DNA of 39,409 nucleotides from a virus. A program made the translations under genes and the position numbers. Where the stretch lies: the UHGV virus genome UHGV-0098635; one strand, given 5' to 3'. This document shows positions 6,675 to 35,622 of this stretch, one piece after another. Under the pieces are notes generated by a model. That model did no database searches. It was given only the letters and a program-made list of their open reading frames with translations, and was not told where the DNA came from. How positions within the stretch are numbered: the stretch's first letter is position 1; each line of letters opens with the position of its first letter.

Positions 6675-6751
6675 TTACCTGTTGGGTAATAAAATATTCT
6701 AAACTCTATTGATTTCGTGTCTTATGTGGTTTTTAATTACCTTAGAGGTAA
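6675..6751 (+). promoter_or_regulatory. composite regulatory module upstream of the nin-like operon
   Basis: TTACCTGTTGGGTAA (6675-6689), CTTATGTGGTT (6721-6731), TTACCTTAGAGGTAA (6737-6751) ending 3 nt before the ATG at 6755. Confidence 0.5.
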
Positions 6752-6754
6752 ATC

Positions 6755-7102
6755 ATGAGAAAACAGATACAGGCTCTTGGTCGACTCAAAACAGGCCAGA
6801 TGAACAAAACAGAATCTGCGTATTGCCAGCACCTTGAGCAGCGTAAACGTGCAGGGGAAATCGCCTGGTATCGATTCGAGGGTATCAAGCTGCGGTTAGC
6901 TGACAACACGTTCTATACGCCTGATTTCGCTGTGATGCTCGCCACCGGAGAGATGGAACTGCACGAAGTGAAAGGGGGATTCTGGACCGACGACGCCAGG
7001 GTGAAAACCAAAGTAGCCGCAGATCAGTATCCGTTCCGAATCATCGGGGTAACGGTTAAACCAAAGAAAGCAGGTGGCGGCTGGAACATCGAAGAGTTCT
7101 GA
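6755..7102 (+). CDS. DUF1064-like phage protein (possible resolvase-like nuclease)
   Basis: 115-aa ORF; the pattern YCQHLEQRKRAGEIAWYRFEGIKLRL...YTPDFAV...HEVKGG recalls DUF1064; nin-region position. Confidence 0.55.
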   Translation: MRKQIQALGRLKTGQMNKTESAYCQHLEQRKRAGEIAWYRFEGIKLRLADNTFYTPDFAVMLATGEMELHEVKGGFWTDDARVKTKVAADQYPFRIIGVTVKPKKAGGGWNIEEF

Positions 7103-7163
7103 ATCGACGATCTTTTTAGTTATCAATGTAATCAATAAGTTATGTGGATAAGCGAGGGTAAAG

Positions 7164-7721
7164 ATGGAAAGTAATATCAAAGGGTTAGTTGCCGCCGGGC
7201 ATGAGATGGCTTCGGAACTGAAAGCAGAATGTGGTGCCGTTGATATGCGCAGTGTGGCAAAGCTGATCAGCGATTTGGCAACGCAACTGGAAGTTCAGTT
7301 GGTGCGTGCTAATGAGCTGGCTGAAGACCAGCAGAAAGCGATTGAGTCAATTAAGCAGGCTGATTCGGCTGTTAAGTTGGCACACGAGAAGTTTTCGGAG
7401 CTGGCAGCGGAGAATGCGGGGCTTAAGGCGATATGTGATGACCGTCGCAGGTTCATCATGAATGGGGTGCAGATGGGTTATATCAAGGTTCCAGCAGCGG
7501 AAACAGATCCAGACCTTGAGACAATTCGCATTGCTATATCACCACAAAAGCCCATTCCAGCCACCGATGCTTTCCTGACTGAAATTGAACGCAAAGCAAT
7601 CCGAAAGTTCATTAACAGCATTGAACACATCCTGCGTGACAAGCTGTCTCCGTATGACACCGAAGAGATGCTTGAGGCTATGCGTATTTTTCTGGAAGAA
7701 CAGGAAGGTGAGCAAAAATGA
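7164..7721 (+). CDS. hypothetical phage protein
   Basis: 185-aa ORF with start/stop coupling to the next gene; predicted helical. Confidence 0.55.
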   Translation: MESNIKGLVAAGHEMASELKAECGAVDMRSVAKLISDLATQLEVQLVRANELAEDQQKAIESIKQADSAVKLAHEKFSELAAENAGLKAICDDRRRFIMNGVQMGYIKVPAAETDPDLETIRIAISPQKPIPATDAFLTEIERKAIRKFINSIEHILRDKLSPYDTEEMLEAMRIFLEEQEGEQK

Positions 7722-8023
7722 CGATCACAAAACAACGTGTAGAAGAAATCATATCCCGTATTGAAATGTATGGGCATGGTGCCGGGTATACCGCTGATGA
7801 GGTTTATGACCTTGCTGTACTGGCGCTGAATTTATCAAATATCGCAAAACTCAAGCGATACGAGCTTGATATGGATGGTTGTGACTCGTTCGGTCAGGAT
7901 TGTGGCGCTGACATGACTGAAGATTCTGATGGCGATTATGTCCTGTTTGATGACGTAGTTAAGTTGTTTGAGTTTGATACATTCGAAAGCCCAGCAAAGG
8001 AGGCAACCAGTGAGCAAGATTGA
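7718..8023 (+). CDS. hypothetical acidic phage protein
   Basis: 101-aa ORF whose start overlaps the upstream stop. Confidence 0.5.
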   Translation: MTITKQRVEEIISRIEMYGHGAGYTADEVYDLAVLALNLSNIAKLKRYELDMDGCDSFGQDCGADMTEDSDGDYVLFDDVVKLFEFDTFESPAKEATSEQD

Positions 8024-8534
8024 TTATCAGGCACTGCGTGAGTTAGCAAAACAGGCAACACAAGGAGAATGGGTTGCATTTATTTCGACGGGTACTGGTA
8101 CGTATGCGGTGCATACGCCCGGTGATAAACGATGTGAAGACGTTATCAAATGGACCGGCTTTGATGGACAGAAAAACGCAGAGAACAACGCTCGTTATAT
8201 CGCAGCTTTCAACCCAGAAGTAGTGCGGGCACTACTGGATGAACGGGAAAGAAACCAGCAATACATCAAAAGCCGTGATCAGGAGAACGAGGATATTGCG
8301 CTAACGGTAGGGAAGTTGCGCGTTGAGCTTGAGGCAGAAAAACAGCGGGCAAAGGATCTGTTTATGGAAAATGCTCGGCTTAAGTCAGGTATAGCCGGTC
8401 TGATACACCTCGGTATTCGATATGCAGATGTTGATGTCATGAAAATTGCTGGAGATGCCCAGCTTTCTACCCCATGCACTGACAGCATCATAAACAGCAT
8501 TGCAACAGGCATTCGCATCAACGGAGGTGAGTAG
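8010..8534 (+). CDS. Ead/Ea22-like family protein
   Basis: GTG start at 8010 with AAGGAGG 6 nt upstream; QGEWVAF...YAVHTPGDKRCEDVI...NARYIAAFNPEVVRALLD resembles Ead/Ea22-like early proteins. Confidence 0.6.
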   Translation: MSKIDYQALRELAKQATQGEWVAFISTGTGTYAVHTPGDKRCEDVIKWTGFDGQKNAENNARYIAAFNPEVVRALLDERERNQQYIKSRDQENEDIALTVGKLRVELEAEKQRAKDLFMENARLKSGIAGLIHLGIRYADVDVMKIAGDAQLSTPCTDSIINSIATGIRINGGE

Positions 8535-8706
8535 TGCGTGTGGCATGTATTGGCTTGTTACCGTACCCGACTCGTTTTTTGGCTTCTGCGCTAATTGCAA
8601 AGCCGTATGTCCTGATGGCTGACAACATCATCCCGGCACCAAAGCGCCGCCATACCGGTATTGCAGCGGCACGACGAGCAGCAAAGAGACGCAGGAGAGC
8701 AAAGCG

Positions 8707-8883
8707 ATGAAAAACCGTAAGGCAAAACGACTTTTTTTACAGCGACCTGTGCGTGTGGTGGAGCTGGTTATTAGCAACCATAAGATAGCGGTACTCCATC
8801 CATTTGGTCAGGTGGCTTTTGCCGCAAAGCGTAAGCCTACTGCGTCACAGAACAGGCGGAAGAAAGGGTACGCTGTAAGATGA
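8707..8883 (+). CDS. small basic protein, paralog of the next ORF
   Basis: 58-aa ORF not in the track; starts MKNRKAKRLFLQRP, with the first roughly 40 nt nearly identical to the start of the ORF at 8880; its stop overlaps that start. Confidence 0.35.
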   Translation: MKNRKAKRLFLQRPVRVVELVISNHKIAVLHPFGQVAFAAKRKPTASQNRRKKGYAVR

Positions 8884-9068
8884 AAAACCGTAAAGCAAAG
8901 ATTCTGTTAGTTCGTAGAAACGCTCCTGGCGTCTGGCAGTGGGTGAGACTCAGCAACCGACGGATGGGGTTGATGAAATATTACGGGATGATGGATTGTG
9001 GTTTTTGCAAAAAGCCCAGCGCGGCGCAAAACCGCTGGAAAAACCACTTGCGCACTAAAGGAGAGTGA
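8880..9068 (+). CDS. small basic protein with Cys pair
   Basis: 62-aa ORF starting MKNRKAKILLVRR. Confidence 0.45.
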   Translation: MKNRKAKILLVRRNAPGVWQWVRLSNRRMGLMKYYGMMDCGFCKKPSAAQNRWKNHLRTKGE

Positions 9069-9069
9069 T

Positions 9070-9333
9070 ATGGCAACTTTGACAAAAAAAGAACAAGCAT
9101 GGTTGAGCGAATTACAGGACGTTCTTGATCGCTGTCCATCACCGAAAAAAATTGGTTTTTACACCATTGGCGATAAAAGCATTTACCTGTATGACCTGCG
9201 CCGCATGGATGAAATCATGGAGGCTCTTGATAATCGTTCGTCGATGGATTGGTGTGTTGCTGTTCATGATATGAATGCAGGGTTTGATGAAAAGATTTTG
9301 TTCCCCTCATCAGTTGAAAGCACTGCGGGTTAA
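9070..9333 (+). CDS. hypothetical phage protein
   Basis: ATG at 9070 with GGAG RBS, directly after the upstream stop. Confidence 0.5.
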   Translation: MATLTKKEQAWLSELQDVLDRCPSPKKIGFYTIGDKSIYLYDLRRMDEIMEALDNRSSMDWCVAVHDMNAGFDEKILFPSSVESTAG

Positions 9334-9343
9334 GGAGTAACAC

Positions 9344-9940
9344 ATGACCACTATAACCGATAAGAAACAGTATCCAGGCGAGCAATATCTTAATGAGCTG
9401 ATCACCAACATAGAGTTTGCTGCAAGGGCACCAGTTGAAGTCGTGAGAGCAATGGCAGCAGAGCTACAGAAGCGGCGCGAAGCTGATAGTGCCGAACCTG
9501 CAAGTAATCATGAAGAGTTGCCGCTTGATTATCTCCAAGGTCAAAAAGATGGTCTTGAATGGGCTGCGCAGCTTGCAGAAGCAAATCACCCACAAACTGG
9601 CGACTGGCTTTACGATGACCCTGTTGAGCTTGCAAAGGCTATTCGCAAAGGTCCGGATATGCCCGAGGCCGCTGGCAACTCTCCGGTAACTCCGGATGGT
9701 TGGATAAGCTGTAGTGAGCGAATGCCAGAAATGGGAGAGCGACAATGCTATGTGTTAGCAGCTGACTTTAAAAACAACTACCCGCCAAACATCCCCAACA
9801 CTCAGGTCGGCGTATATGGCGACTGGTTTAATGATGGCAATCCCACTTGGGATGACGGTGATGGCGAAGACCTGTATCTCAAAGAGGTAACCCACTGGAT
9901 GCCGCTACCAGAACCGCCGAAGGAGGTTAACCGTGGCTAA
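9344..9940 (+). CDS. DUF551-domain phage protein
   Basis: The C-terminal segment DGWISCSERMPE...THWMPLPEPP is the DUF551-type signature (recalled). Confidence 0.6.
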   Translation: MTTITDKKQYPGEQYLNELITNIEFAARAPVEVVRAMAAELQKRREADSAEPASNHEELPLDYLQGQKDGLEWAAQLAEANHPQTGDWLYDDPVELAKAIRKGPDMPEAAGNSPVTPDGWISCSERMPEMGERQCYVLAADFKNNYPPNIPNTQVGVYGDWFNDGNPTWDDGDGEDLYLKEVTHWMPLPEPPKEVNRG

Positions 9941-9970
9941 CATGCAACTTATCCTTAAAGGTGAAAAGAT

Positions 9971-10192
9971 TTGAGGATTCGCATCATTAATAACACCGAC
10001 AAGCATCCGGAAGATTATTTGGATTGCTCGTTAGCAGAGTGCGGTATTTCCGTATGGGATGAGTTCGATGTGATGCGTAAAACCGCTTACGGCTATGTCG
10101 TAATTCATAACGGAGACGAATTATTTGTTCGTCGGTCAGAATGCGTGGAATTGATAGAAGAGAATCTCCGCACATCGGCAACACACAGCTAA
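9971..10192 (+). CDS. hypothetical phage protein
   Basis: 73-aa ORF with an apparent TTG start preceded by AGGTGA. Confidence 0.4.
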   Translation: MRIRIINNTDKHPEDYLDCSLAECGISVWDEFDVMRKTAYGYVVIHNGDELFVRRSECVELIEENLRTSATHS

Positions 10193-10219
10193 GTATGTTC
10201 GCGATAAAGGTAAATATTG

Positions 10220-10558
10220 ATGGCTAAATCAGCAGCAGAGCGCAAAGCCGCTCAGAGAGCCAGACAAGCTGCATCTGGTGTGCGTAAGCTGGAGATTGTG
10301 CTTGATGCTCAGGAAATTGAAATGCTGGAGCGTAACTGTGCCACGCGTCGCCCCGGGCGTGCGCCTTACGAATTTGGTGAGTATATAGCGTTACTGATCC
10401 GCCAGGATGATGCACGCGTGCGCGGGCGTATAAAATCGATCAGCAGAAAACGTTGCGGTAAGTGCGGCGAGAGAGTTCCTGTGAATTCATGCCCGTGCAA
10501 TGGTGACTCGCAATGCTGGGTGACTAAAGGCTGGCATGAAACGAAATTAATAGTGTGA
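10220..10558 (+). CDS. zinc-finger protein at the end of the early region; candidate late-gene regulator
   Basis: 112-aa ORF with a basic N-terminus and a CGKCGERVPVNSCPCNGDSQC cluster; it is the last gene before a terminator and terminase. Confidence 0.45.
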   Translation: MAKSAAERKAAQRARQAASGVRKLEIVLDAQEIEMLERNCATRRPGRAPYEFGEYIALLIRQDDARVRGRIKSISRKRCGKCGERVPVNSCPCNGDSQCWVTKGWHETKLIV

Positions 10559-10566
10559 CATGTCAC
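10555..10566. repeat. perfect 12-bp palindrome GTGACATGTCAC, copy 1
   Basis: Overlaps the stop codon of the 10220 ORF; an identical copy lies at 30674-30685. Confidence 0.7.
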
Positions 10567-10607
10567 GAGTAGATTATGCATGATGAATTTGATGGGTTTT
10601 GAATACT

Positions 10608-10634
10608 GCCGCCAACTATGGCGGCTTTATTTTG
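10608..10634 (+). terminator. rho-independent terminator upstream of terminase (tR'-like position)
   Basis: Stem GCCGCC / GGCGGC, loop AACTAT, followed by TTTATTTTG. Confidence 0.5.
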
Positions 10635-10676
10635 CATGGTACTATTACCACAACGGTAACTATTACCACGGTGGTT

Positions 10677-11273
10677 ATGATGCCTGCTGAACCTAAAACC
10701 TATAAACGCAAATCAACGCAATTTAAGCCACTAACAGCAATGCAGGAGGCTTATTGCCAGTCATACATCAAAACGCCTGAAAACCAGACTCAGGCAGCGA
10801 TTAACGCAGGATTCTCCCCAAATACAGCGGCAGTTAAAGCCAGTGTCATGATGCGCGATGAACGCATTCAAAAACGGATTGCCGAGTTGATGGAGGAGCG
10901 CAACAAACGAATGCGCGTCAGTGCTGATTACGTTCTCATGCGCCTGGTGGAGATCGACCAGATGGACGTGATCGATATCCTCAACGACGATGGGAGCCTT
11001 AAACCAATCCGTGAGTGGCCGAAAATCTGGCGCACTACGCTTAGTGGCTTTGATCTGTCATCGACCATCATGAACATGAACGAGGATTCGATAGAGACAA
11101 TCCTCAAAAAAATTAAATGGCCTGACAAGGTGAAGAACCTTGAGCTGATTGGTAAGCATGTTGATGTCAACGCGTTCAAAGAACGTCTGGATGTTAATGT
11201 GAATGTGACAATTGCTGATCGCATAGCAGCAGCCAGGAAGCGACTCAAAGAACGTCAGGATGGTAATCAGTGA
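10677..11273 (+). CDS. terminase small subunit
   Basis: Start ATG at 10677 or 10680; positioned directly upstream of the large subunit with a 4-nt overlap. Confidence 0.65.
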   Translation: MMPAEPKTYKRKSTQFKPLTAMQEAYCQSYIKTPENQTQAAINAGFSPNTAAVKASVMMRDERIQKRIAELMEERNKRMRVSADYVLMRLVEIDQMDVIDILNDDGSLKPIREWPKIWRTTLSGFDLSSTIMNMNEDSIETILKKIKWPDKVKNLELIGKHVDVNAFKERLDVNVNVTIADRIAAARKRLKERQDGNQ

Positions 11274-12745
11274 CAGATACCGTGTTATCTCCTGAAGAGC
11301 AGTTAATCGAGGATATTGCAGGGTTCACTCACGATCCGCTTGGTTATGCCCTCTATGCGTTCCCTTGGGGGGAAGAGGGGACTGAACTGGCACATGCTAC
11401 CGGCCCACGTCAGTGGCAGGCCGATGCGTTCCGAGAGATACGTGATCACCTGCAGAATCCAGAGACGCGCTATCAGCCGCTTATGCTGGCACGCGCTTCT
11501 GGTCACGGTATTGGTAAATCCGCATTCATCTCAATGCTGATCAACTGGGGCATGTCCACTTGCGAGGATTGTAAGGTCGTGGTGACCGCCAACACCGACA
11601 ACCAGCTACGAACGAAGACCTGGCCGGAAATTATCAAGTGGTCGAACCTTGCTATCACGAAAGACTGGTTTACCTGTACCGCTACCGCGATGTACAGCAA
11701 TGATCCTGGGCACGACAAGCGGTGGCGAGCTGACGCAATCCCCTGGTCTGAGCACAACACTGAGGCATTCGCCGGACTACACAACGAGCGCAAACGCATC
11801 ATCGTGGTATTCGATGAAGCGTCGAACATTGCGGATCTGGTGTGGGAAGTTGCTGAGGGTGCGCTTACGGACGAAGACACTGAGATTATCTGGGTGGCGT
11901 TCGGAAACCCTACACGTAACACCGGGCGTTTCCGCGAATGTTTCCGCAAATATAAACACCGCTGGAAAACTGCGCAGATTGACAGCCGGACGGTGGAAGG
12001 CACTAACAAACAGCAGTTGCAGAAATGGGTTGATGACTACGGGGAAGACAGCGACTTCGTTAAAATCCGTGTGCGCGGCATATTCCCTGATGCATCTGAA
12101 TTGCAGTTTATCCCTACCGGTCTTACTGATGAGGCAATGAAACGGGTGGTAACCGCTGCGCAGGTGGCGCATGCTCCGGTGATAATCGGTGTTGACCCGG
12201 CATATTCAGGCGTTGATGACGCGGTGATATACCTGCGGCAGGGGCTACACAGTAAGATGCTGTGGACTGGCAACAAGACCACTGACGATCTGATTATGGC
12301 GAAGCGTATCGCTGACTTTGAAGACCAGTATCAGGCTGACGCGGTGTTCATCGACTTCGGTTACGGAACCGGTTTGAAGTCAATCGGTGATGGCTGGGGG
12401 CGTACTTGGCAACTTGTTCCGTTCGGCGGCGCGTCTACTGACCCGCAGATGCTCAATAAGCGCGGGGAGATGTTCAACTCATGCAAGACATGGCTGAGGC
12501 TGGGCGGCATGCTGGATGACCAGGAAACAGCAGACGACCTGTCGGCGGCAGAGTACAAAGTTCGAGTGGACGGTAAAATCGTTATCGAACCGAAGGAAGA
12601 TATCAAGGAGCGGCTTGGGCGTTCACCGGGTAAAGGCGATGCGCTACTGCTGACGTTTGCGTTCCCTGTGTCGAAGCGTCTGCGAATTCCCGGGCAGCAG
12701 AACCAGCAAGGCAAGGCCATTACAGATTACGATCCCTATGCTTAG
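11270..12745 (+). CDS. terminase large subunit
   Basis: 491-aa ORF with an ATPase-like N-terminus and nuclease-like C-terminus, in the canonical position before the portal. Confidence 0.85.
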   Translation: MTDTVLSPEEQLIEDIAGFTHDPLGYALYAFPWGEEGTELAHATGPRQWQADAFREIRDHLQNPETRYQPLMLARASGHGIGKSAFISMLINWGMSTCEDCKVVVTANTDNQLRTKTWPEIIKWSNLAITKDWFTCTATAMYSNDPGHDKRWRADAIPWSEHNTEAFAGLHNERKRIIVVFDEASNIADLVWEVAEGALTDEDTEIIWVAFGNPTRNTGRFRECFRKYKHRWKTAQIDSRTVEGTNKQQLQKWVDDYGEDSDFVKIRVRGIFPDASELQFIPTGLTDEAMKRVVTAAQVAHAPVIIGVDPAYSGVDDAVIYLRQGLHSKMLWTGNKTTDDLIMAKRIADFEDQYQADAVFIDFGYGTGLKSIGDGWGRTWQLVPFGGASTDPQMLNKRGEMFNSCKTWLRLGGMLDDQETADDLSAAEYKVRVDGKIVIEPKEDIKERLGRSPGKGDALLLTFAFPVSKRLRIPGQQNQQGKAITDYDPYA

Positions 12746-13560
12746 TCTTTATTTTTATCCTCGAAACCTGATAATCCAGATAGAACACCAAAGTTATTAA
12801 AAACGTCTGGCTTACCAGATTTTAATCCGGATAAGTTGTGTTGCTCCAAAAAGTTGCTAATTGTTTGGCCGTTGCCAAGTGCAAGACTTTTTATTTGAGA
12901 TTTTTCAGGGTATTTGAGTTTGTATTCGTCGAAATCATTTTGGAGGGTCTTATATGCCTCATTCATTCTTCCCAGAGTTTCCGATATCTCTTTTAATGAA
13001 TGATTTAGAGCTGCTAACTGAGCACTGGCGGATCTCAATTCGTCATCTTTAGCTTTCAACTCGGCAGTCAATTCCCCCATACTATTCTTTGATCGAATAA
13101 TCTCTTCTTTCATCTCTTGGATGTCTTTTTCCGCGCCAGTCTTAACTTTGTCGTATGTAACATCTTTTTTAGCCAATAACCTCTGCAGTCTGGTTTCACG
13201 CTGGATTTTTCTTGCCTTCAGGTGATTTTCGATTGAGTCATTATTATCAAGAGGCTTTGCTTGCCATACGTTAATGATATTGTTTACCCATGGTAATAGG
13301 CAGCAGATAGCAATTACAGATAAGCATGGATAAAACATAACAGTTTTCCATGTGCTGTTATCTGAGATATATGAAATTTTATCTATTATGTTTGATTTGC
13401 TAAAAAATAGATAAAGAATTGATTTCCAGTTGAAGGCGCACCAGGACATAACAAAAGCACCAAGCACAGGGTTTTTGGCTCGATTCACGGCAGTATTGGC
13501 AGTAGATAAAAACAGCTCTTTGAAGGATTCAAACATGCTAATTACCTTGAAGTTTTTCAT
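12742..13560 (-). CDS. accessory membrane plus coiled-coil protein of unknown function
   Basis: AT-rich and opposite in strand to the flanking late genes. Start taken at 13560 (MKNFKV). Two hydrophobic segments and a long charged helical region. Uses AGA/AGG Arg codons. Confidence 0.6.
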   Translation of the reverse strand: MKNFKVISMFESFKELFLSTANTAVNRAKNPVLGAFVMSWCAFNWKSILYLFFSKSNIIDKISYISDNSTWKTVMFYPCLSVIAICCLLPWVNNIINVWQAKPLDNNDSIENHLKARKIQRETRLQRLLAKKDVTYDKVKTGAEKDIQEMKEEIIRSKNSMGELTAELKAKDDELRSASAQLAALNHSLKEISETLGRMNEAYKTLQNDFDEYKLKYPEKSQIKSLALGNGQTISNFLEQHNLSGLKSGKPDVFNNFGVLSGLSGFEDKNKD

Positions 13561-13564
13561 GATT

Positions 13565-13579
13565 ATACCTTTAAGGTAA
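13565..13579 (-). promoter_or_regulatory. operator-like palindrome abutting the accessory gene start
   Basis: Minus-strand TTACCTTAAAGGTAT followed by AATC and the ATG. Confidence 0.5.
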
Positions 13580-13595
13580 TTTGCGGTCATCAAGC

Positions 13596-13619
13596 AAAAA
13601 AATGCCCGGCGAACCGGGC
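13596..13619 (-). terminator. rho-independent terminator (second of two after the tRNA)
   Basis: Stem GCCCGG / CCGGGC, loop CGAA, followed on the minus strand by a T-run. Confidence 0.5.
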
Positions 13620-13696
13620 GAACTGGAAGCAATGAGTTATGCCTTCCGTGGCTGTACTGGTTTACAGCATGAAGTCATCGCAATGGCGTCCTGCTG

Positions 13697-13782: not shown

Positions 13783-13859
13783 TGGCGTGGCATGCAGGAT
13801 TCGAACCTGCGACCAACCGCTTAGAAGGCGGTTGCTCTGTCCAACTGAGCTAATGCCAC
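13783..13859 (-). tRNA. tRNA-Arg, anticodon UCU (reads AGA)
   Basis: Hand-folded 77-nt cloverleaf: 7-bp acceptor stem GTGGCAT/ATGCCAC, D-arm GCTC..GAGC, anticodon loop CTTCTAA, T-arm GCAGG-TTCGAAT-CCTGC, discriminator G, encoded CCA. Confidence 0.85.
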
Positions 13860-14181: not shown

Positions 14182-14258
14182 TTACCTGAAAGGTAATAAT
14201 TCGCGCGTTAAATGTCAACTGTCTACGATAAATAAATCATATGTGGTTAAATTGGTAA
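14182..14258 (+). promoter_or_regulatory. composite regulatory module upstream of the portal operon
   Basis: TTACCTGAAAGGTAA (14182-14196), CATATGTGGTT (14237-14247), GGTAAT half-site (14253-14258). Confidence 0.5.
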
Positions 14259-14286
14259 TGATTTAATTGCGTACGGAGTCATTGAT

Positions 14287-14493
14287 ATGTGCATGGGTAG
14301 CTCACCATCAGTGCCTGCAACACCAGAAGTTCAGGCAGCACCACAGGAGCAGGATGCCGCCGTTGTTGATGCCCGCGACGAAGAAACTCGTCGCCGTCGC
14401 GCTGCTGCTGGTCGTAGTTCTACGCTGCTTACCGGTTCTCAGGGCGACACATCAACCGCTAATACCAGCGGTAAAACGCTGCTTGGTCAGTAA
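14287..14493 (+). CDS. small hypothetical protein upstream of the portal
   Basis: 68-aa ORF, Ala/Ser/Thr/Gln-rich; its initiation region GGAGTCATTGATATG is nearly duplicated at the portal start. Confidence 0.4.
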   Translation: MCMGSSPSVPATPEVQAAPQEQDAAVVDARDEETRRRRAAAGRSSTLLTGSQGDTSTANTSGKTLLGQ

Positions 14494-14507
14494 CCGGAGT
14501 CATTGAA

Positions 14508-16187: not shown

Positions 16188-16480
16188 CAGATTACGAAGA
16201 CGATCAACTGAAAGAAGAAAACGCCCGTAAGCAACGTGACATGGCGCAGCGTGAAATTGATGACATTCGCTTTGTCATGAGCAGTGAACAGGGGCGTCGC
16301 GTTGTCTGGTCGGTGCTGGAGAAAGGCCGTGTGTTTTCCGCTATCTCACCGATGGACGCTATGGCAATGGCATTTAATGAGGGGCAACGCAATCTGGCGC
16401 TGGAACTGTTTCAGCGCGTTATGGCGCATTGCCCTGAACAGTATTTGAAGATGGCCAAAGAGGCCAGTGAACAGGAGTGA
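16184..16480 (+). CDS. hypothetical head-module protein
   Basis: 98-aa ORF coupled by overlap to the portal stop. Confidence 0.55.
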   Translation: MTDYEDDQLKEENARKQRDMAQREIDDIRFVMSSEQGRRVVWSVLEKGRVFSAISPMDAMAMAFNEGQRNLALELFQRVMAHCPEQYLKMAKEASEQE

Positions 16481-16482
16481 TC

Positions 16483-17178
16483 ATGAATTTGTTTGAGCGT
16501 TTGCTGTATAGCCGTCTTTGCAATGAGCAACCAGTCGATGGTGGAGCAGCTCCGGCTGCGTCAGAACCGTCAGCGCCTGCAGGTGATAACCCTGCTCCAG
16601 TTGGTGATCCATCACAACAGGAAGGTGATAAGCCACAACCTGTTGCTGATGTCGATAAACCTGCTGATGACAAAAAGCCTGAAAACGATAAGCAGGATGA
16701 AAAAAAGGACGGCGATAAACCAGAGGGTGCGCCTGAGAAGTACGAGTTTCAGGCTGCCGAAGGCGTAGAGCTGGATACAGAAGCGTTGAAGGAATTCGAG
16801 CCGGTGGCGCGAGAACTTAACCTGACCAACGAGCAAGCGCAAAAGCTGGTTGATGCTTATCCGAAGATTCTGGCAGGTGTTCAGCAGCGCCAGGCAGAAG
16901 CCTGGCAGAAAACAACCGAGCAGTGGGCTGCGGATGTAAAAGCTGACAAAGAAATCGGTGGCGACAAGTTGATTTCTAACCTTAGCGCCGCACAGCGTGC
17001 GCTTGACCAGTTCGGGACACCTGAACTCAAAGAATATCTGAACACCACCGGGCTGGGTAATCACCCTGATCTGGTCAAAACGTTCGTGAAAATCGGAAAG
17101 GCGATGTCTGAAGATGGCATGGTCACCGGTGGTAATGAAGGCCAGCGTAGTGCGGCCGAAGTGCTCTATGGCAAATAA
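16483..17178 (+). CDS. scaffolding protein (gp9-like position)
   Basis: Acidic, low-complexity, helical ORF between portal and capsid; ATG at 16483 with AGGAG RBS. Confidence 0.6.
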   Translation: MNLFERLLYSRLCNEQPVDGGAAPAASEPSAPAGDNPAPVGDPSQQEGDKPQPVADVDKPADDKKPENDKQDEKKDGDKPEGAPEKYEFQAAEGVELDTEALKEFEPVARELNLTNEQAQKLVDAYPKILAGVQQRQAEAWQKTTEQWAADVKADKEIGGDKLISNLSAAQRALDQFGTPELKEYLNTTGLGNHPDLVKTFVKIGKAMSEDGMVTGGNEGQRSAAEVLYGK

Positions 17179-27767: not shown

Positions 27768-27772
27768 ATTAA

Positions 27773-30247
27773 ATGAGACAGGAATGTATACAAGCGGTCC
27801 AGCAGGCGGCGCAGCGCACGTTAACGGCGCGAGAAATACAGAACATTGAAGACCGCATTTATCGAAATATGCGCTCCATTGCTCGTGATGACCCGATGTC
27901 GTGGCGACAACTTTCCGAATCAGAGCGGCTGTATCGTGCAGCACAATTGGCATCTGAAGAATTACAGCGAGAAGCGGCATTAAAGAAACGTCGTGTGGCC
28001 CTCACTATAGCCGCACGTCAGAGATTGGATAAATTTATCAATAGCTATCAAGGGGCTGATGGGAAACTTGGCGCTCTTAACCGTACTATTGCTTTTAATG
28101 CAGACGGTAAATCGAATTTCCTCTCTGTTGAATCCAGAACAAAAGCCACCCGTGATTATGCATTGAGTCAATTACAGGAGGCATTCGAAGCAGTTGATCC
28201 TCGCTTTTTTGGTCTGTTTGAAGATGAAGCGGGCGTACGTGACCTGGTATATGAAATGCGGGGGCAAAATACTGGCAATGCTAAAGCAAGAAAAGGTGCT
28301 AAGGCGTGGAGAGAAGTGACAGAGCTACTGCGCCGCCGGTTTAATGATGCTGGTGGGGACATTGGCTATCTCGAAAACTGGGGGATCCCTCAACATCATT
28401 CTATGGAAAAGGTTGGGGCGGTATCAAAAGATAAATGGGTTAGCGATGTTATAGGTAAGCTGGATCGCAAATATTATACCCGAGCCGATGGACAACTGAT
28501 GAACGATGCCGAGTTGTCTGCATTTCTTGGAGAGGCTTATAACACGATCGCTACTGGTGGGCTGAATAAGCTTACTGATACCGGAATGCGAATTTCCGGC
28601 GCACGTGCTAACCGTGGTAATGCATCACGACAGATACATTTCAAAGATGCAGATTCCTATCTGCAATATCAGCAACTTTATGGCGATCGCTCTCTATGGG
28701 AAATCATGGTCGGTCACCTGGAAGGGATCAGTAAAGATATTGCTTTGGTGGAAACATATGGTCCAAACCCCGATCATGTTTTCCGTTCCCTTCTTGATCA
28801 GGTGAAGGCAGAAACGGCAACAGCTAACCCGAGTAAAACCGGTAGCGTCGAGCGGCTGGCGAACAAAACAGAGAACCTGTACAACTTTATTTCCGGAAAG
28901 ACACAGCCTGTTGCGAATCCTCACATCGCGCGCTGGTCTGACAATATCAGAAACTGGCTGGTTGCCAGCAGGCTCGGATCCGCGTTGCTGTCATCGTTCT
29001 CTGATCTTGGAACCATGTATCTGTCTGCGAAGGTTACCAACCTTCCAATGAACCAGTTATTCCGCAACCAGCTTGAAGCTATGGACCCAACGAACCGTAC
29101 AGAACTTGCGCGGGCGCGCCGCGCTGGTCTGGCGATGGAATCTCTACTTGGCAGCGTTAACCGCTGGGCGATGGATAATATGGGGCCGTCAGTGTCTCGT
29201 TGGGCGGCAACGGCGGTAATGCGTGCCAGTGGGCTTACAGCATGGTCAGATGCGCACAAGCGCGCTTATGGCGTAACCATGATGGGAAGCCTGGGAGAAG
29301 TAGTGTCACGGACACCAGACCTTCGTAGCCTCGATGACTCTGATTTTCGTATCCTGAAAAGCAAAGGGATTACTGACACAGACTGGAGCGTATGGAAGCT
29401 GGCGCAACAGGAGGACTGGGGGAACGGTAATAATACGATGCTGACACCGGAAAGCATTATGCGTATCCCTGATTCAGCAGTTAAACATCTTGGTGAGCCT
29501 GAACGTGTGAAATTTGAGGCAATGCGTAAACTGCTCGGTGCCGTAACTGAAGAAGTTGATATGGCTGTTATTACACCGGGCGCACGTGAACAGATGTTCG
29601 TAGGGTCTGGTCTTCAGCGTGGAACATGGAAAGGTGAATTAACGAGAAGTGTTTTCCTGTTTAAATCGTTCCCTATCTCGGTAGTTATGCGTCACTGGCA
29701 TAGAGCTATGGGGATGCCGTCTGCTGGTGGGCGTGCGGCATATATAGCAACGTTTTTAGCAAGCACAACCATGCTTGGTGCTCTTTCCATGCAGATTACT
29801 GATCTTATTAATGGGAGAAATCCAAAAGAAATGACCGGTGACAACATGGTTAAATTCTGGATAAATGCATTTTTAAAAGGTGGTGGGGCAGGGTTGTATG
29901 GTGATTTTCTTTTCTCTGACCACACCAGGTACGGGAGCGGCGCACTAGCGTCGATGCTTGGCCCGGTAGCTGGTCTGGTTGATGACGTAGTGAAGATTGC
30001 TCAGGGCATACCGTTAAATGCTGTGGAAGGGAAGAATGAGCAGACTGGTGGTGATCTGGTTAAGCTTGGGAAAGGTTTGATGCCTGGTGCGAATCTCTGG
30101 TACTTGAAGGCGGCTCTCGATCACATGATCTTTAATCAGATGCAGGAGTATTTTTCACCAGGCTATTTGCGTAAAATGGAGCAACGTTCGAAGAAAGAGT
30201 TTAACCAGACATACTGGTGGCGACCTCAGGATGTCACTCCGCAATAA
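27773..30247 (+). CDS. internal virion protein, T7 gp16 C-terminal-region-like
   Basis: The segment LFKSFPISVVMRHWHRAMGM...AFLKGGGAGLYGDFLF parallels the T7 gp16 segment QFKSFTIKSLNSKFLRTFYDG...MGLAGGFYAM (recalled). Confidence 0.65.
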   Translation: MRQECIQAVQQAAQRTLTAREIQNIEDRIYRNMRSIARDDPMSWRQLSESERLYRAAQLASEELQREAALKKRRVALTIAARQRLDKFINSYQGADGKLGALNRTIAFNADGKSNFLSVESRTKATRDYALSQLQEAFEAVDPRFFGLFEDEAGVRDLVYEMRGQNTGNAKARKGAKAWREVTELLRRRFNDAGGDIGYLENWGIPQHHSMEKVGAVSKDKWVSDVIGKLDRKYYTRADGQLMNDAELSAFLGEAYNTIATGGLNKLTDTGMRISGARANRGNASRQIHFKDADSYLQYQQLYGDRSLWEIMVGHLEGISKDIALVETYGPNPDHVFRSLLDQVKAETATANPSKTGSVERLANKTENLYNFISGKTQPVANPHIARWSDNIRNWLVASRLGSALLSSFSDLGTMYLSAKVTNLPMNQLFRNQLEAMDPTNRTELARARRAGLAMESLLGSVNRWAMDNMGPSVSRWAATAVMRASGLTAWSDAHKRAYGVTMMGSLGEVVSRTPDLRSLDDSDFRILKSKGITDTDWSVWKLAQQEDWGNGNNTMLTPESIMRIPDSAVKHLGEPERVKFEAMRKLLGAVTEEVDMAVITPGAREQMFVGSGLQRGTWKGELTRSVFLFKSFPISVVMRHWHRAMGMPSAGGRAAYIATFLASTTMLGALSMQITDLINGRNPKEMTGDNMVKFWINAFLKGGGAGLYGDFLFSDHTRYGSGALASMLGPVAGLVDDVVKIAQGIPLNAVEGKNEQTGGDLVKLGKGLMPGANLWYLKAALDHMIFNQMQEYFSPGYLRKMEQRSKKEFNQTYWWRPQDVTPQ

Positions 30248-30256
30248 GGAACAACA

Positions 30257-30670
30257 ATGAAGGAATTATTGCTGTTATCGGTATTTTTGATATCCGCTTG
30301 CTCGACATCCTATGATGTTTATGACGGTGTTGATAAGGCATATTGCGACAAAGTTAAAATGGATTTTTCTCTTGCCAAGACGGCGAAGGATAGTTGTATT
30401 GATCACTACGTCAAGACTTATACCAAGCCAGCCTCATCGGCATCTGATATTGCTGAAGGTGCTGTGTTTGAGTGTAACAAGGTGATATCCATCGCAGCGA
30501 GTTCTTCATACGATGCTGCTGTATGTGCAATGGCTGAAAGAAACGGCATGTCAGTGCAAAAAATTAATAGCATGATAAGCAGTAATGACGAAGCCAAAAT
30601 AAGAACTGATATCAGCTCGGTGAAAAAAGATGCCATGAACAGAGTTGTAAAATATCAGTCATCTTTATAA
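30257..30670 (+). CDS. lipoprotein, accessory gene
   Basis: 137-aa ORF with a signal peptide and lipobox (LISAC); AT-rich; last gene of the late operon before a terminator. Confidence 0.65.
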   Translation: MKELLLLSVFLISACSTSYDVYDGVDKAYCDKVKMDFSLAKTAKDSCIDHYVKTYTKPASSASDIAEGAVFECNKVISIAASSSYDAAVCAMAERNGMSVQKINSMISSNDEAKIRTDISSVKKDAMNRVVKYQSSL

Positions 30671-30673: not shown

Positions 30674-30685
30674 GTGACATGTCAC
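30674..30685. repeat. perfect 12-bp palindrome GTGACATGTCAC, copy 2
   Basis: Lies 4 nt after the lipoprotein stop and abuts the terminator stem. Confidence 0.7.
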
Positions 30686-31906: not shown

Positions 31907-32563
31907 TCAGAAGAACCCTGCCTTGTCGTTGATGTACTCCGCGTGGGTCTGGATATCACGCAGGCATTTGCTCACACCGACGATGTAGCAGAACATGGTG
32001 GTCAGCTCCGCCGCCGCGCCCGATACGTCGTGCCCGTCTTCCTGTAACTGGTTCAGCAGATTCATCAGCAGTGAGTTCTCCGTCAGGCCGAGAACACCAG
32101 ACGGAGAATGAATCAGGCTGCGGTAGCCGGGCTTCAGTGGGGCGCTGTATTCTTTTTTGTCTTCCAGCTTGATCGCCTCCATAATGGCGGGCATGAAGCC
32201 TGACAAGACCTTCTCCACTTTTGTTTCTTGTTGTCTTAAACGTTTCTCGCATTCAATGAAGTAGCGTCGCACCTGGCGACCTTTTTCGTTACGCTCGACC
32301 ATCGCCAGCTCTTTGGCTGTATCAAGGGTGAGGTGGTACTCTTTGCGGTTGTGGCCGCCTCTACCAGATGTTTGCTTTCCCAAATTGGAAAGCAAAATAT
32401 AGTCTTGATTTTCAATGAATTCGTATTCTGATATGCGATTTGTAATCCATGCTGCAAACACCTTTTTAACACCTAAAAAAGCGTGCAGATCGCGGGCATT
32501 ACAAAGTAGGGCTGTTTCGTTAGATATAGTGCCGTTGAATACGGGGATGAGTTGAGCGTTCAT
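31907..32563 (-). CDS. phage antirepressor, AntA-type N-terminal domain
   Basis: The N-terminus [32 protein letters not shown] matches the AntA/Ant antirepressor pattern; the C-terminal roughly 80 aa are paralogous to the ORF at 32881-33138. Confidence 0.75.
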
Positions 32564-32723
32564 GATGGCGTCTCCACTTAGCGAATTACATCACCACCGC
32601 TGAGACCAATCAGATGGTGGTGAACTGAACGGAGTTGGTCTTACCGGCCTAAGTGGTACCGGCGTCCTTTCGGACCCCCATTCAGCCCACCATAATTCTG
32701 GCATGACTGTGCTATACGCATAA

Positions 32724-32801
32724 AAAAACCACGTCTGGCGTGGTATGCGCCACTTAGTAATCCGGGAGACCAATCCCGGCACTGGATTTTGCCAGTGCCC
32801 G
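32724..32801 (-). ncRNA. structured non-coding segment with terminator; candidate small RNA or attenuator
   Basis: Minus-strand series of stem-loops: GGCACTGG/CCAGTGCC (plus 32780-32801), CCGGGA/TCCCGG, then CCACG-CCAGA-CGTGG followed by T7. The track ORF here (32591-32914) is judged spurious. Confidence 0.3.
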
Positions 32802-32834: not shown

Positions 32835-32849
32835 TTACCGCAAAGGTAA
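32835..32849 (-). promoter_or_regulatory. operator-like palindrome
   Basis: TTACCGCAAAGGTAA. Confidence 0.5.
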
Positions 32850-32880
32850 ATATAAGCACTCATCTTGGTAATTTCAAGCC

Positions 32881-33138
32881 TTATCTGGTTTGTTTTCGTA
32901 ATTGTTCGGCACAATAGTCGAGATGTGTTTGCAGATCCCGCATAGACATCTGTGAGCTGGTGACGTAGTTAATCAGTGCAGTCAGTTCGGCAAGTGGGCC
33001 ATCGACATTAAATCCATCCTTATCGAGATCCCGGAGTAATTTCATCAAGTGCGATCCCTCCACTAGTGATCTGACGCCTCCCGGCGTGTGAATCCTTTCG
33101 GTAAATCCGTCTTCCAGTGGATAGTGATACTGCTGCAT
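32881..33138 (-). CDS. small antirepressor-like protein, paralog of the AntA C-terminal domain
   Basis: Start taken as the ATG at 33138 (MQQYHY) with GGAGAA RBS. IHTPGGVRSLVEGSHLMKLLRDLDKDGFNVDG...MRDLQTHLDY aligns with the AntA C-terminus [32 protein letters not shown]...[10 protein letters not shown]. Confidence 0.6.
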   Translation of the reverse strand: MQQYHYPLEDGFTERIHTPGGVRSLVEGSHLMKLLRDLDKDGFNVDGPLAELTALINYVTSSQMSMRDLQTHLDYCAEQLRKQTR

Positions 33139-33159
33139 CTTATCTTCTCCATGCAATAA

Positions 33160-33175
33160 CTGTATATTTATACAG
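33160..33175. promoter_or_regulatory. LexA (SOS) box
   Basis: CTGTATATTTATACAG; with flanks AACTGTATATTTATACAGTA it matches the 20-bp LexA consensus TACTGTATATATATACAGTA at 18 of 20 positions; about 22 nt upstream of the start at 33138. Confidence 0.75.
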
Positions 33176-33214
33176 TATCAAATAATTTGTTTGCTATCCA
33201 GCACGTTTTGCAAA

Positions 33215-33280
33215 TTACCCGAAAGGTAATATCTATTCGTATTTACAGTCTTTCTATCCATATGTGGTTTTTCGGGTAAT
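33215..33280 (+). promoter_or_regulatory. composite regulatory module in the antirepressor/tailspike divergent region
   Basis: TTACCCGAAAGGTAA (33215-33229), CATATGTGGTT (33259-33269), GGTAAT (33275-33280). Confidence 0.5.
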
Positions 33281-33333
33281 AGAATAACCAGATATGCGGC
33301 GCAACGGGTGCTGCGACTATCTGGAGATTTAAC

Positions 33334-35349
33334 ATGACGGTCTCAACCGAAGTTGACCACAACGAATACACAGGTAACGGCGTTACGACATCATTTCCGT
33401 ATACCTTCCGTATTTTCAAAAAATCCGACTTGGTTGTTCAGGTGTCTGACCTGAACGGGAACGTAACAGAATTGGTTCTGGATACCGGTTATACGGTAAC
33501 TGGGGCGGGCACTTATAGTGGCGGTTCTGTTGTTCTTCCGTCGCCGCTTGCTGCTGGATGGCGAATTACGATAGATCGTGTGCTTGATGTAGTGCAGGAG
33601 ACAGACCTTCGCAATCAGGGAAAGTTTTTCCCCGAAGTGCATGAAGATGCCTTTGACTACCTGACGATGCTGATCCAGCAATGTTTTGGGTGGTTCAGAC
33701 GTGCATTGATGAAACCATCTTTGCTTGCAAAATATTACGATGCAAAGCAAAACAGAATTTCTAACCTTGCAGATCCATCACTTGAGCAGGACGCTGTAAA
33801 TAATCGCTCAATGCGTAATTATGTCGATGCTGCAATCGCCGGGGTTGTTGGTGGTTTTGGTTGGTTTATTCAGTATGGTTCAGGCGCGGTATATAGAACG
33901 TTTCAGGATAAGATGCGGGATACTGTCAGTGTTCTTGACTTTGGCGCTAAAGGTGATGGAGTCACAAATGATACAGATGCTTTCATTGCCGCGGCATCTG
34001 CTTCGCCACAAGGTGTTTATGTTCCTGATGGCACGTATTTATTGCCGGAAGATATTAATGGAAGATTTTATGGCCCAGGAAAAATAATTAAAGAGACAGG
34101 AGCGGAACGAATTCCGTTTACCAATGTAGCTCAGTCTCATAGCAACCTTATTTTAGGTTATGATGCCGCAAAAAATTACACTGACTCTGGTAAAGGTAAT
34201 CAATTGGTTTTGCTTGGACCAAGTTCTGGTCGCAACATAACTAGCGGCACTAACACAATCGTGGTTGGTGTGGGTGGTTTGTCAGGAGATACTCTAGAAG
34301 ATGATCTTACAGATAAGTCGCCATTTTCTGGAACAGAGATTATCAGTATAGGTATTAATGCTTTGAAGAAAGCCACCACTGGAAATAACATGATTGGTAT
34401 TGGCAGGGATGCGCTAAACGAGTGTAAGGATGGTAGGTTCAATGTTGCAGTTGGTATGTCAGCTTTGCAGCAACTCCATTCTGGAGAAGCTAATGTTGCA
34501 ATAGGACGCTCTGCAGGAATGCGTACTGGCATCTACACAGACCCTCAAGGTGTACGTCTTGGGTATAATAAATGTAATGGAAATACCCTTATTGGTAATG
34601 CAGCTGGTAGGGAGTTAAAGCAAGGTGATCATAACACAGCTATAGGTAATGGAGCATTGCGAGGAGTATCATCAACAGAGAACCCATACACTGGGACTCT
34701 CACAGGTAATTTTAATACAGCAATTGGTGTTGATGCTCTCAATTCCCTATCCTCAGGTGACCTGAATGTTATGATAGGTGCAAGAGCAGGAAGAAAATTA
34801 CCAACTGGAAATGGTAATATTTTTATAGGTCCAGATGCTGGTACCGGAATATCAGAAGATACCTCCAATAAATTCATTGTAAATAATCACAAAGGATTGC
34901 CTTTTTTAGAAGGTGTTATGGGAGGCGCACAAGCGGAAGATAACTATTTGCGTATAGATGGTAGTGTTGCCCCCCAGATGGATAATCAAAGAACTTGTGG
35001 TCAATCTAGTCGTAGATGGCAAACTGTCTTTGCAACTAATGGTGTAATACAAACATCTGACGGTAGATGTAAAGATGTGTATGAGATATCTACGGCAGAG
35101 TATAGTGCAGGGCTAGAATTAGCCATTAGCATGATAAAGTTTAAATGGACAGATGCAGAATCTGATAAGTATCACTTCGGATGTATGGCTCAAGAAGTAA
35201 TGCTGATTATGGAGAAATATAATCTTAACCCTACAGACTATTCTCTGGTTACTTATGATAAAGAATCGGATATGTATGGTGTAAATTACGCTGACTTATC
35301 TTGTTTCTGTATTGCAGCTATGTCTAAACATTTATTACGAAGTGCGTAA
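33334..35349 (+). CDS. tailspike/tail fibre: T7 gp17-like N-terminal adaptor, receptor-binding region, C-terminal S74-type self-cleaving chaperone
   Basis: The N-terminus (YTGNGVTTSFPYTFRIFKKSDLVV) parallels T7 gp17 (recalled). The C-terminus DGRCKDVYEI...MIKFKWTD...YSLVTYD fits the intramolecular chaperone pattern. The middle is AT-rich. Confidence 0.75.
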   Translation: MTVSTEVDHNEYTGNGVTTSFPYTFRIFKKSDLVVQVSDLNGNVTELVLDTGYTVTGAGTYSGGSVVLPSPLAAGWRITIDRVLDVVQETDLRNQGKFFPEVHEDAFDYLTMLIQQCFGWFRRALMKPSLLAKYYDAKQNRISNLADPSLEQDAVNNRSMRNYVDAAIAGVVGGFGWFIQYGSGAVYRTFQDKMRDTVSVLDFGAKGDGVTNDTDAFIAAASASPQGVYVPDGTYLLPEDINGRFYGPGKIIKETGAERIPFTNVAQSHSNLILGYDAAKNYTDSGKGNQLVLLGPSSGRNITSGTNTIVVGVGGLSGDTLEDDLTDKSPFSGTEIISIGINALKKATTGNNMIGIGRDALNECKDGRFNVAVGMSALQQLHSGEANVAIGRSAGMRTGIYTDPQGVRLGYNKCNGNTLIGNAAGRELKQGDHNTAIGNGALRGVSSTENPYTGTLTGNFNTAIGVDALNSLSSGDLNVMIGARAGRKLPTGNGNIFIGPDAGTGISEDTSNKFIVNNHKGLPFLEGVMGGAQAEDNYLRIDGSVAPQMDNQRTCGQSSRRWQTVFATNGVIQTSDGRCKDVYEISTAEYSAGLELAISMIKFKWTDAESDKYHFGCMAQEVMLIMEKYNLNPTDYSLVTYDKESDMYGVNYADLSCFCIAAMSKHLLRSA

Positions 35350-35622
35350 GTACATATTTTATTGTTATTCCTAAACCACCTCCTTGTGAGGTGGTATGTT
35401 ATAGCTATCTTTTACTGATTAAATCAGTGAATTAATAACTTAAATATTGTAATTATGCCTAAATTACTCGTTAATAATTTCTCTACCGTGTTTTAATCAG
35501 TGACACTTTTTCGACAGTAATGAGTTTAACATTAGTATTACAATGAATTACCTGTTTAACCACATGTGGTTTATTGTGTATGATGAACCCCTTAAATTAG
35601 GAGGGCATATGCACATTAAACG

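Follow-up and report, generated by a model that had tools for sequence, protein, structure and literature searches.

The prophage and its gene order

The DNA analyzed here is a stretch of 39,409 nucleotides from the virus genome UHGV-0098635 (the window), and its intergenic regions carry eight copies of a 14-bp dyad-symmetric element, which is the subject of this report. The window is 97–98% identical over most of its length to the Escherichia phages vB_EcoP_ZX5, phiV10, PAS61 and TL-2011b, and shows about 76% identity to Salmonella phage epsilon15. Judged from these matches, it is an E. coli Uetakevirus prophage of the epsilon15/phiV10 type, a genus of temperate podophages. Homology to ZX5 ends at 37556, directly after the attP/attB core ATTGAGTGGGAATGATT (37540–37556), and the integrase gene is expected to the left of base 1, outside the window, so the window is taken to be a prophage cut at its left end with the right junction inside.

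The gene order is that of the relatives (Table 1); the first gene of the PL operon (3398–3550) encodes a 50-aa protein. The structural module had been described as T7-like; it is rather epsilon15/BPP-1-like and not strictly T7-like. A phage RNA polymerase had been reported as missing, and none was seen among the open reading frames (ORFs), as judged from annotated relatives.

Table 1. Dyads, operators and genes of the window (PWM, position weight matrix)
Feature	Position	Strand	Basis or remark
Leftward early operon (PL operon)	3550 down to 50	-	order in relatives
PerC-family "transcriptional activator" in PL operon	693..992	-	subfamily confined to genus
Rep operator TTACCGTTGAGGTAA at PL	3570..3584	.	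starts on last base of PL -10
Dyad ATGCGTATTTGGTT	3590..3603	.	PWM 16.0 bits; GGTAA 5 bp away
rep (Rep repressor)	3704..4288	-	order in relatives; N-terminal helix-turn-helix and C-terminal HTH_3-type domain; homolog of SPC32H Rep (PDB 5D50)
cro-like gene (76-aa helix-turn-helix protein)	4443..4673	+	order in relatives; invariant recognition helix GTTSHYIQ.HLT
Near-perfect palindromic dyad AACCAAATCTGGTT	4749..4762	.	after cro terminator (4695-4714)
66-aa zinc-ribbon protein and replication genes	4824-6637		order in relatives
Dyad TGTCTTATGTGGTT (originally placed at 6721)	6718..6731	+	PWM, promoter scan
nin-like gene block	6755-10558		order in relatives
Terminase	10599-12745		order in relatives
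tRNA-Arg and one ORF, leftward	13859-12742	-	order in relatives
Dyad AATCATATGTGGTT, upstream of gp3-like and portal genes	14235..14248	+	PWM, alignment
gp3-like/portal/virion operon	14287-30670		order in relatives
Antirepressor region, leftward	33156-30952	-	order in relatives
Dyad AACCAGATAAGGCT	32877..32890	-	PWM, promoter scan
Best-scoring dyad ATCCATATGTGGTT, upstream of tailspike	33256..33269	+	PWM 22.5 bits
Weaker inverted dyad AACCAGATATGCGG	33286..33299	-	abuts tailspike -10 on its downstream side
Tailspike	33334-35349		order in relatives
Perfect palindrome AACCACATGTGGTT, upstream of lysis genes	35558..35571	.	PWM, promoter scan
Lysis genes (membrane protein/holin/endolysin)	35623-37429		order in relatives

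A 14-bp dyad recurs in the intergenic DNA

The original prediction described four copies of a recurring motif close to operon starts. When the window was searched for CATATGTGGTT with at most one mismatch, six matches were found against 0.79 expected, and none of 100 shuffles reached six. The matches start at 6721, 14238, 33259 and 35561 on the plus strand and at 33286 and 35558 on the minus strand, the pair at 35558/35561 overlapping in a palindrome. Three of the predicted copies (6721, 33259 and 35558) were thus recovered where they had been placed, and the fourth starts at 14238 instead of 14237. The perfect 14-bp palindrome reported at 35558 was also present. Measured from motif start to start codon, the copies lie 34 (6755), 49 (14287), 75 (33334) and 65 (35623) bases before their operons, within the 30–90 bp originally given.

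The conserved unit is 14 bp long and not 11, a pseudo-palindrome whose PWM consensus is A(A/T)yCAyA-TrTGGTT (hyphen between the halves). CATATGTGGTT is the well-kept, strong half of this dyad-symmetric site, and the other half is degenerate. The symmetry can be read directly from the copies: perfect or near-perfect palindromes occur at 35558 (AACCACATGTGGTT) and 4749 (AACCAAATCTGGTT) and in the phages Tyrion (AACCATATATGGTT) and epsilon15 (AACCGTATATGGTT), and the weak half of the asymmetric copies still has C at position 4, a pyrimidine at position 6 and A at position 7, as symmetry would require.

The PWM was built from the copies and used to scan the window, with a cut-off of at least 14 bits, and its relatives. 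Eight of the ten matches in the window are intergenic, although intergenic DNA makes up only about 7.8% of the prophage; the other two (266 and 15517) lie in coding sequence and are probably due to chance. Four of the intergenic dyads (3590, 4749, 32877 and 33286) had not been listed before. The simplified form AACCA-N4-TGGTT, with at most one mismatch, gave eight matches in the window compared with 1.4 expected.

Position of the dyads in predicted promoters

All -10 and -35 elements given here are consensus predictions, with 9 of 12 matching positions as the threshold of the promoter scan. At the late promoters (portal, tailspike and lysis), the dyad is followed after 7–10 bp by a -10-like hexamer, so that it spans roughly -36 to -20. 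The portal dyad is followed by AAATT, the half-site GGTAA (14254–14258) and AATGAT (14257–14262; AATAAT in relatives), and the block TGGTTAAATTGGT.AT.ATTT.A (dots, variable columns) is invariant in nine genomes. The tailspike dyad is followed by TTTCG, GGTAA (33275–33279) and TAGAAT (33280–33285). Downstream of the lysis dyad there are two -10 candidates, TATGAT (35579–35584) and TATTGT (35572–35577), and the half-site TTACC (35548–35552) lies 5 bp upstream. No -35 element reached the scan threshold at the portal and tailspike sites; the scan gave a 9/12 match at the lysis promoter of the window (TTAACC-17-TATGAT), with a -35 that falls within the dyad and is not shared by relatives. A -10-like hexamer with a conserved site and without a -35, the pattern of activator-dependent late promoters, was seen at 14235, 33256 and 35558 and at their orthologs, and no cognate activator was identified. 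The dyads of the late promoters also score highest (18.9–22.5 bits versus 14.5–16 at early promoters). The additional copy at 33286 is kept in the E. coli group and degenerate elsewhere.

The dyad takes other positions at the remaining promoters. At PL (minus strand: -35 TTGACA 3612–3607, -10 AATCAT 3589–3584), it forms the last 14 bp of the 17-bp spacer, giving the order TTGACA, 3 bp, dyad, AATCAT and a Rep operator from the last -10 base, a layout that is the same in seven genomes. The predicted promoter P_A2, after the replication genes and upstream of 6755, is built likewise: TTGATT (6709–6714), 3 bp, the dyad as the last 14 bp of a 17-bp spacer, and TTTAAT (6732–6737), with Rep operators at 6737–6751 (5 bp off the dyad) and 6675–6689. 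Both spacer dyads are centered at about -19.5, and their strong halves are on opposite sides, which points to a symmetric site for a dimer and not to a polar promoter element.

At the predicted rightward promoter after cro, which serves the 66-aa protein and the replication genes, the final TT of the dyad opens the -35 TTGATC (4761–4766), followed after 17 bp by the -10 CAAAAT (4784–4789), and a degenerate operator ends 5 bp upstream of the dyad (GGTAA 4739–4743). On the minus strand, the last base of the 32877 dyad opens the -35 TTGAAA (32877–32872), followed after 17 bp by TATATT (32854–32849) and the Rep operator 32835–32849, with the half-site GGTAA (32867–32871) 5 bp from the dyad; isrK, the C4 antisense RNA and the AntA/B antirepressor would be transcribed from this predicted promoter. 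The dyad centers lie at about -40.5 after cro and -41.5 at isrK/ant, the class II activator geometry, as counted from predicted starts. The -35 TTGATC after cro also holds a GATC (Dam) site, which is kept beside the dyad (GGTTGATC) in every genome examined, and the phage encodes adenine methyltransferases of its own.

The motif had been proposed as the recognition element of a late activator. It does appear to be a conserved, non-random core-promoter element, and the late sites look activator-dependent, but it is not late-specific: the spacers of PL and P_A2, the region after cro and the isrK/C4/antirepressor promoter have the dyad as well. Across the promoters it takes both orientations and three registers. 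Not every promoter has one. The terminase promoter, in the region 10608–10677, consists of an extended -10 TGGTACTAT (10637–10645) directly after a terminator, with two adjacent Rep operators (10645 and 10663) and no dyad. Nearly every transcription unit seems to come after a terminator and to start from a promoter of its own that includes a Rep operator, which does not look like a read-through or antitermination design.

Several known site types did not match. The dyad is not a sigma-70 -35 element, as it occurs in both orientations and 0, 7, 8 or 10 bp from the -10. The spacers of PL and P_A2 are 17 bp and not over-long (19–20 bp) as at MerR-type spacer operators. The only CTGT-N8-ACAG box of the LexA type is at 33160–33175, apart from the dyads. 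The integration host factor (IHF) consensus (WATCAANNNNTTR) has at least two mismatches at every dyad when inspected by eye, and the IHF sites annotated in epsilon15 are at Rep operators, not at dyads.

Rep operators and the 5-bp register

TTACC-N5-GGTAA with at most one mismatch occurs at 13 sites in the window (0.68 expected). Orthologous sites are annotated as "repressor" protein_bind features in the epsilon15 RefSeq record, where the dyads are unmarked. The dyad, being AACCA-N4-TGGTT, is not a Rep operator, and none of the 13 operator matches coincides with one. The two elements are nevertheless coupled in position. In 50 of 70 PWM matches from 16 genomes, exactly 5 bp separate the dyad edge from GGTAA or TTACC, as they do at seven of the eight intergenic dyads of the window, the eighth being at 6 bp. 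Exceptions are mostly matches in coding regions and the lysis-promoter sites of other genomes. The original prediction had noted a GGTAA-type half-site 4 nt after the motif; this half-site is real, and its position is described more exactly as 5 bp from the dyad edge, with GGTAA or TTACC. Full operators were also found 29–41 nt upstream of three copies (6675–6689, 14182–14196 and 33215–33229), close to the 30–40 bp stated earlier. As a general rule, however, the distance of 5 bp from a Rep half-site describes the copies better than a constant place downstream of an operator palindrome. Within the late-promoter spacers, the half-site creates TGGTT-N5-GGTAA, an operator mimic with one half replaced.

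The regular offset raises the question of whether Rep itself contacts the dyad. The 14-mer would then be an auxiliary part of a Rep repression complex, touched, for example, by the C-terminal HTH_3-type domain or by a tetramer that spans two operators, and the site would be bipartite and purely negative. One protein reading both sites is the simplest explanation of a fixed 5-bp offset. Rep has helix-turn-helix-like regions at residues ~21–61 and a second, sequence-typical Xre-type helix-turn-helix with a clear HTH_3 match at residues 106–147. Operator pairs are spaced 62 bp apart, center to center, at PL (3577/3639, the partner operator being 3632–3646) and in the P_A region before 6755 (6682/6744), and this spacing is the same in all relatives checked; the portal hybrid TGGTT-N5-GGTAA is also 62 bp from its full operator (14189/14251). 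The constant spacing suggests a fixed Rep tetramer span or loop. The far operators lie 40.5–43.5 or 52.5 bp from the dyad centers, near whole helical turns, and the repressor of Psychrobacter phage pOW20-A, which has no dyads, matches only the N-terminal region of Rep, its C-terminal part being unmatched.

However, the dyad is unchanged between phage groups whose C-terminal recognition helices differ (AQVTISR versus GPATVNR), the neighboring half-site can face either way, and in most relatives the dyad of the lysis promoter has no half-site at 5 bp. Residues 106–147 fall in the part of Rep that is described as the tetramerization and Ant-binding domain; the structure paper on SPC32H Rep reportedly places DNA binding in the N-terminal domains, with tetramerization and Ant binding in residues 92–198. 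We consider a Rep complex reading both sites unlikely.

Conservation across genomes

Orthologous dyads were found in seven phages (ZX5, epsilon15, Tyrion, PAT1, SPC32H, Kp4865-1 and BUCT554) and in eight prophages of Citrobacter, Erwinia, Kluyvera, Buttiauxella, Pseudocitrobacter, Scandinavium and Klebsiella. The hosts of these 15 genomes belong to ten genera, Escherichia, Salmonella and Enterobacter being added to the seven just named, and some of the dyad-bearing relatives are only about 76% identical to the window. In alignments of the regions upstream of the portal, tailspike and lysis genes, the dyad and the next 15–25 bp stand out as invariant islands, whereas the DNA before them is variable. 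At least 300 IMG/VR contigs encode a relative of Rep; the 80 that were kept all have an identical Rep. Sodalis phage phiSG1 has a portal protein 58% identical to that of the window, yet is without Rep, Cro, operators and dyads, so the element follows the set of regulators, not the structural genes. Phages ZF40 and N15 also have no dyads. No published description of the dyad was found, a text search with the motif strings returning only primers, and no transcriptome or transcription start site papers were found for the genus.

Enrichment, symmetry, register and conservation are all seen directly in the sequences, and the element is very probably a functional protein-binding part of these predicted promoters. 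The same observations bear on the idea that RNA polymerase reads the motif itself, as an unusual -35 or spacer signal, or that the motif is merely inherited sequence. The dyad does always lie within predicted core promoter regions, and two predicted -35 hexamers borrow its terminal TT. Nevertheless, its two orientations and at least three registers relative to the -10, its symmetry including perfect palindromes, and its conservation as an island amid variable flanks leave this idea a very slim chance.

Invariance of this degree would also suit a conserved Enterobacterales protein, through which the promoters would be coupled to host physiology or the Rep loop would be shaped. The motif is practically invariant over the ten host genera, and phage regulators diverge to 42–80% identity. 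On the other hand, phiSG1, ZF40 and N15 infect related hosts and have no dyad, and the text search found no description of such a site. The dyad is not known to match the site of any familiar regulator, including IHF, Fis, CRP, FNR, LexA, DnaA, FadR/PdhR, RutR and MerR-type regulators. A host protein as the binder is improbable.

Candidate binding proteins

Scans of the ORFs with Pfam and PHROGs detected no Q-type or other known late regulator and nothing homologous to CII, MotA/AsiA, Lpa, Mor/C or Ogr, and a search of the six-frame ORFs for further helix-turn-helix paralogs of Rep or Cro gave none. The candidates for the regulator are the Cro-like protein, the PerC-like protein, the C-terminal domain of Rep and a host factor. 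Presence or absence did not discriminate among the candidate genes, since all are present in the seven other phages and eight prophages, apart from gaps that possibly reflect a short flank or contig end (the gp49-like gene in Kluyvera; the PerC- and AlpA-like genes at one Citrobacter locus). Binding by the C-terminal helix-turn-helix of Rep would account for the fixed register, yet the recognition helix of this domain is variable and the dyad is constant.

Relatives of the Cro-like protein were found only in Enterobacterales at 56% identity or more, and only within the genus in the phage collection, the sole distant one being in pOW20-A. The dyad could be an operator for a second repressor, whether the Cro-like protein or another, whose sole effect would be to lower promoters, with no activation. 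The Cro-like protein is restricted to the genus like the motif, and its recognition helix is invariant; the dyads in the PL and P_A2 spacers abut the -10, a repressing position, as does the 33286 copy downstream of the tailspike -10. Against this, the best sites are at the virion and lysis promoters, which are needed in lytic growth and lack a -35, and the DNA between rep and cro, where a repressor of the Cro type would be expected to bind, contains no dyad. The pOW20-A comparison, given below, also points to ACC-N5-GGT operators as the sites of Cro. We regard a purely repressing regulator as distinctly unlikely.

Two zinc-finger proteins, encoded at 10220 and 4824, had been suggested as activators, and both are poor candidates. 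The 10220 protein (112 aa, with a ribbon-helix-helix (RHH)-like N-terminus and a Cys cluster) is an unlikely binder of the dyad, as it tracks another palindrome, GTGACNNGTCAC, in three unrelated phage types that are free of dyads. Its homologs in ZF40 (66%) and N15 (35%) each occur in a phage with three GTGAC-NN-GTCAC copies, of which one is at the stop codon of the homolog's gene, as at 10555 in the window. The 4824 zinc-ribbon protein was down-weighted; its zinc ribbon is widespread in unrelated phages, many of them apparently non-temperate, and is only 52–84% conserved here. The AlpA-like protein (1102–1350) was also down-weighted: if it is the excisionase, its sites would be expected near attP, and no dyad is present there in epsilon15 or ZX5.

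Proposed role of the dyad

We tentatively propose, with somewhat less than even confidence, that the dyad is bound by a second dimeric regulator, distinct from Rep and specific to the epsilon15/phiV10 lineage, which activates late promoters and damps early ones. Both the existence of this protein and the direction of its regulation are inferred. At the portal, tailspike and lysis promoters, the regulator at -36 to -20 would supply the missing upstream contact and recruit the host sigma-70 polymerase, and Rep would compete with it for the overlapping hybrid TGGTT-N5-GGTAA. At PL and P_A2, binding to the weaker dyads in the spacer by the -10 would lower these promoters, and at the promoters after cro and at isrK/antirepressor the site near -41 would be in the classical activating position. 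The adjacent dyad and Rep sites of the early promoters would allow joint occupancy. The outcome would be a switch from early to late expression, coupled to Rep by the 5-bp register. That one protein acts in both directions is plausible.

Several points weigh against a second phage regulator. No candidate protein could be tied to the dyad. All -10 and -35 assignments are consensus matches, and the distance from the dyad to the -10 differs by promoter class (0, 7, 8 or 10 bp, or a position upstream of the -35). The invariance of the motif across hosts would also suit a conserved host protein. As to the two phage-encoded candidates, pOW20-A has a Cro-like homolog, classical OL/OR operators (ATACC-N5-GGTAT) and no dyad, which suggests that Cro reads the Rep-type operator. 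PerC/Pch proteins are described as being without a known DNA-binding fold, and they have no defined site (PMC4764244). The single-sequence AlphaFold2 model of the PerC-like protein had a predicted local distance difference test (pLDDT) score of 49 and was unusable.

The dyad resembles the Rep operators of epsilon15/SPC32H type in being dyad-symmetric, located in core promoters and present in many copies genome-wide, in its ACC...GGT core and in the coupling at 5 bp. It differs from them in its half-site, AACCA/TGGTT with 4 bp between instead of TTACC/GGTAA with 5 bp, and in having one half degenerate. At some phage promoters that depend on an activator, a protein site stands in for the -35; examples are those of lambda CII (PRE, PI and PaQ), the T4 promoters with a MotA box at about -30 and the P1 late promoters that depend on Lpa. 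The portal, tailspike and lysis promoters are like these in having a -10 without a -35 and a conserved element at about -36 to -20. Unlike the CII, MotA and Lpa sites, the dyad is also found in the spacers of early promoters that contain a -35 and near -41 at others.

The phi29 protein p4 represses early and activates late promoters, binding far upstream (about -82) and working with p6. The logic proposed here is similar, with strong sites at late promoters and weaker sites inside early ones, but there is no sequence or protein relationship between the phi29 system and the element of this phage. The dyads between the -35 and -10 at PL and P_A2 are reminiscent of a lambda-type Q binding element; however, no Q-like gene was found in the Pfam or PHROGs scans, and the eight sites are at several promoters, not at one late promoter and terminator.

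Two more specific arrangements were also considered, and both are speculative and rather improbable. The first is a bipartite Rep operator with the N-terminal domains on the half-sites and the C-terminal Xre-type helix-turn-helix on the dyad 5 bp away; if so, an antirepressor seizing the C-terminal domains of Rep would free both contacts at once. The second is that TGGTT-N5-GGTAA is a built-in switch at every late promoter in which Rep and a late activator compete, which would provide temporal control without antitermination in a temperate podophage.

Phages of the epsilon15/phiV10/SPN1S type serve as reporter and typing phages, and their Rep/Ant/LexA lysis-lysogeny switch has been studied structurally. 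E. coli, Salmonella and Klebsiella very commonly carry such prophages. A conserved second site in fixed register with Rep half-sites at every major promoter offers a handle on late-gene timing, and the late promoters are a compact, probably activator-dependent set for engineering these phages. The dyad, as a probable regulator binding site, is a new member of a familiar kind of element, although one not annotated in the epsilon15 record, so its value is specific rather than general and mainly for workers on this prophage family.

Other elements in the window

Further elements were noted near the regulatory genes. The DNA from the rep start codon to the first OR operator contains an inverted repeat, TGAATCA-GTAGA-TGATTCA (4312–4330). 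Relatives keep it in part, and it might serve to control the transcription of rep. All relatives have a minus-strand TTGACA (14218–14213) without any change, and its distance to TACCYT, within the Rep operator 14182–14196, is 17 bp throughout; a tRNA-Arg(TCT) is encoded on the minus strand at 13783–13859. TTGACA and TACCYT probably form a leftward promoter under Rep control that serves the tRNA and ORF 12742–13632 and diverges from the portal promoter.

Upstream of the AntA/B-type antirepressor (31907–32563), Rfam identified a C4 antisense RNA (32613–32697) and the Hfq-binding RNA isrK (32722–32798), both on the minus strand. The C4, isrK and AntA/B set is an immI module like that of P1 and Gifsy. 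The prophage seems to have two antirepressor systems, the immI module and a small homolog of SPC32H-type Ant (32881–33156). The LexA box mentioned above, CTGTATATTTATACAG, is perfect and lies just upstream of this small homolog, and it fits the antirepressor of SPC32H, which is reportedly controlled by LexA.

A third element is the perfect palindrome GTGACATGTCAC, found at 10555–10566 and 30674–30685 (2 copies, 0.02 expected). The copies are at gene or module ends beside terminators, and one always overlaps the stop codon of the 112-aa RHH/Cys gene (10220–10558). Copies of this type are found in ZF40 at 5125, 7622 and 14944 and in N15 (GTGAC-TG-GTCAC) at 28550, 33237 and 39269. As the palindrome tracks homologs of the 10220 protein in three unrelated phage types, it is probably the binding site of that protein.

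Past the attachment core (37557–39409), the match to Uetakevirus is gone and phage-type minus-strand genes are still present, at 37649–38188 (a family of unknown function) and 38204–38722 (a DNA methyltransferase family).

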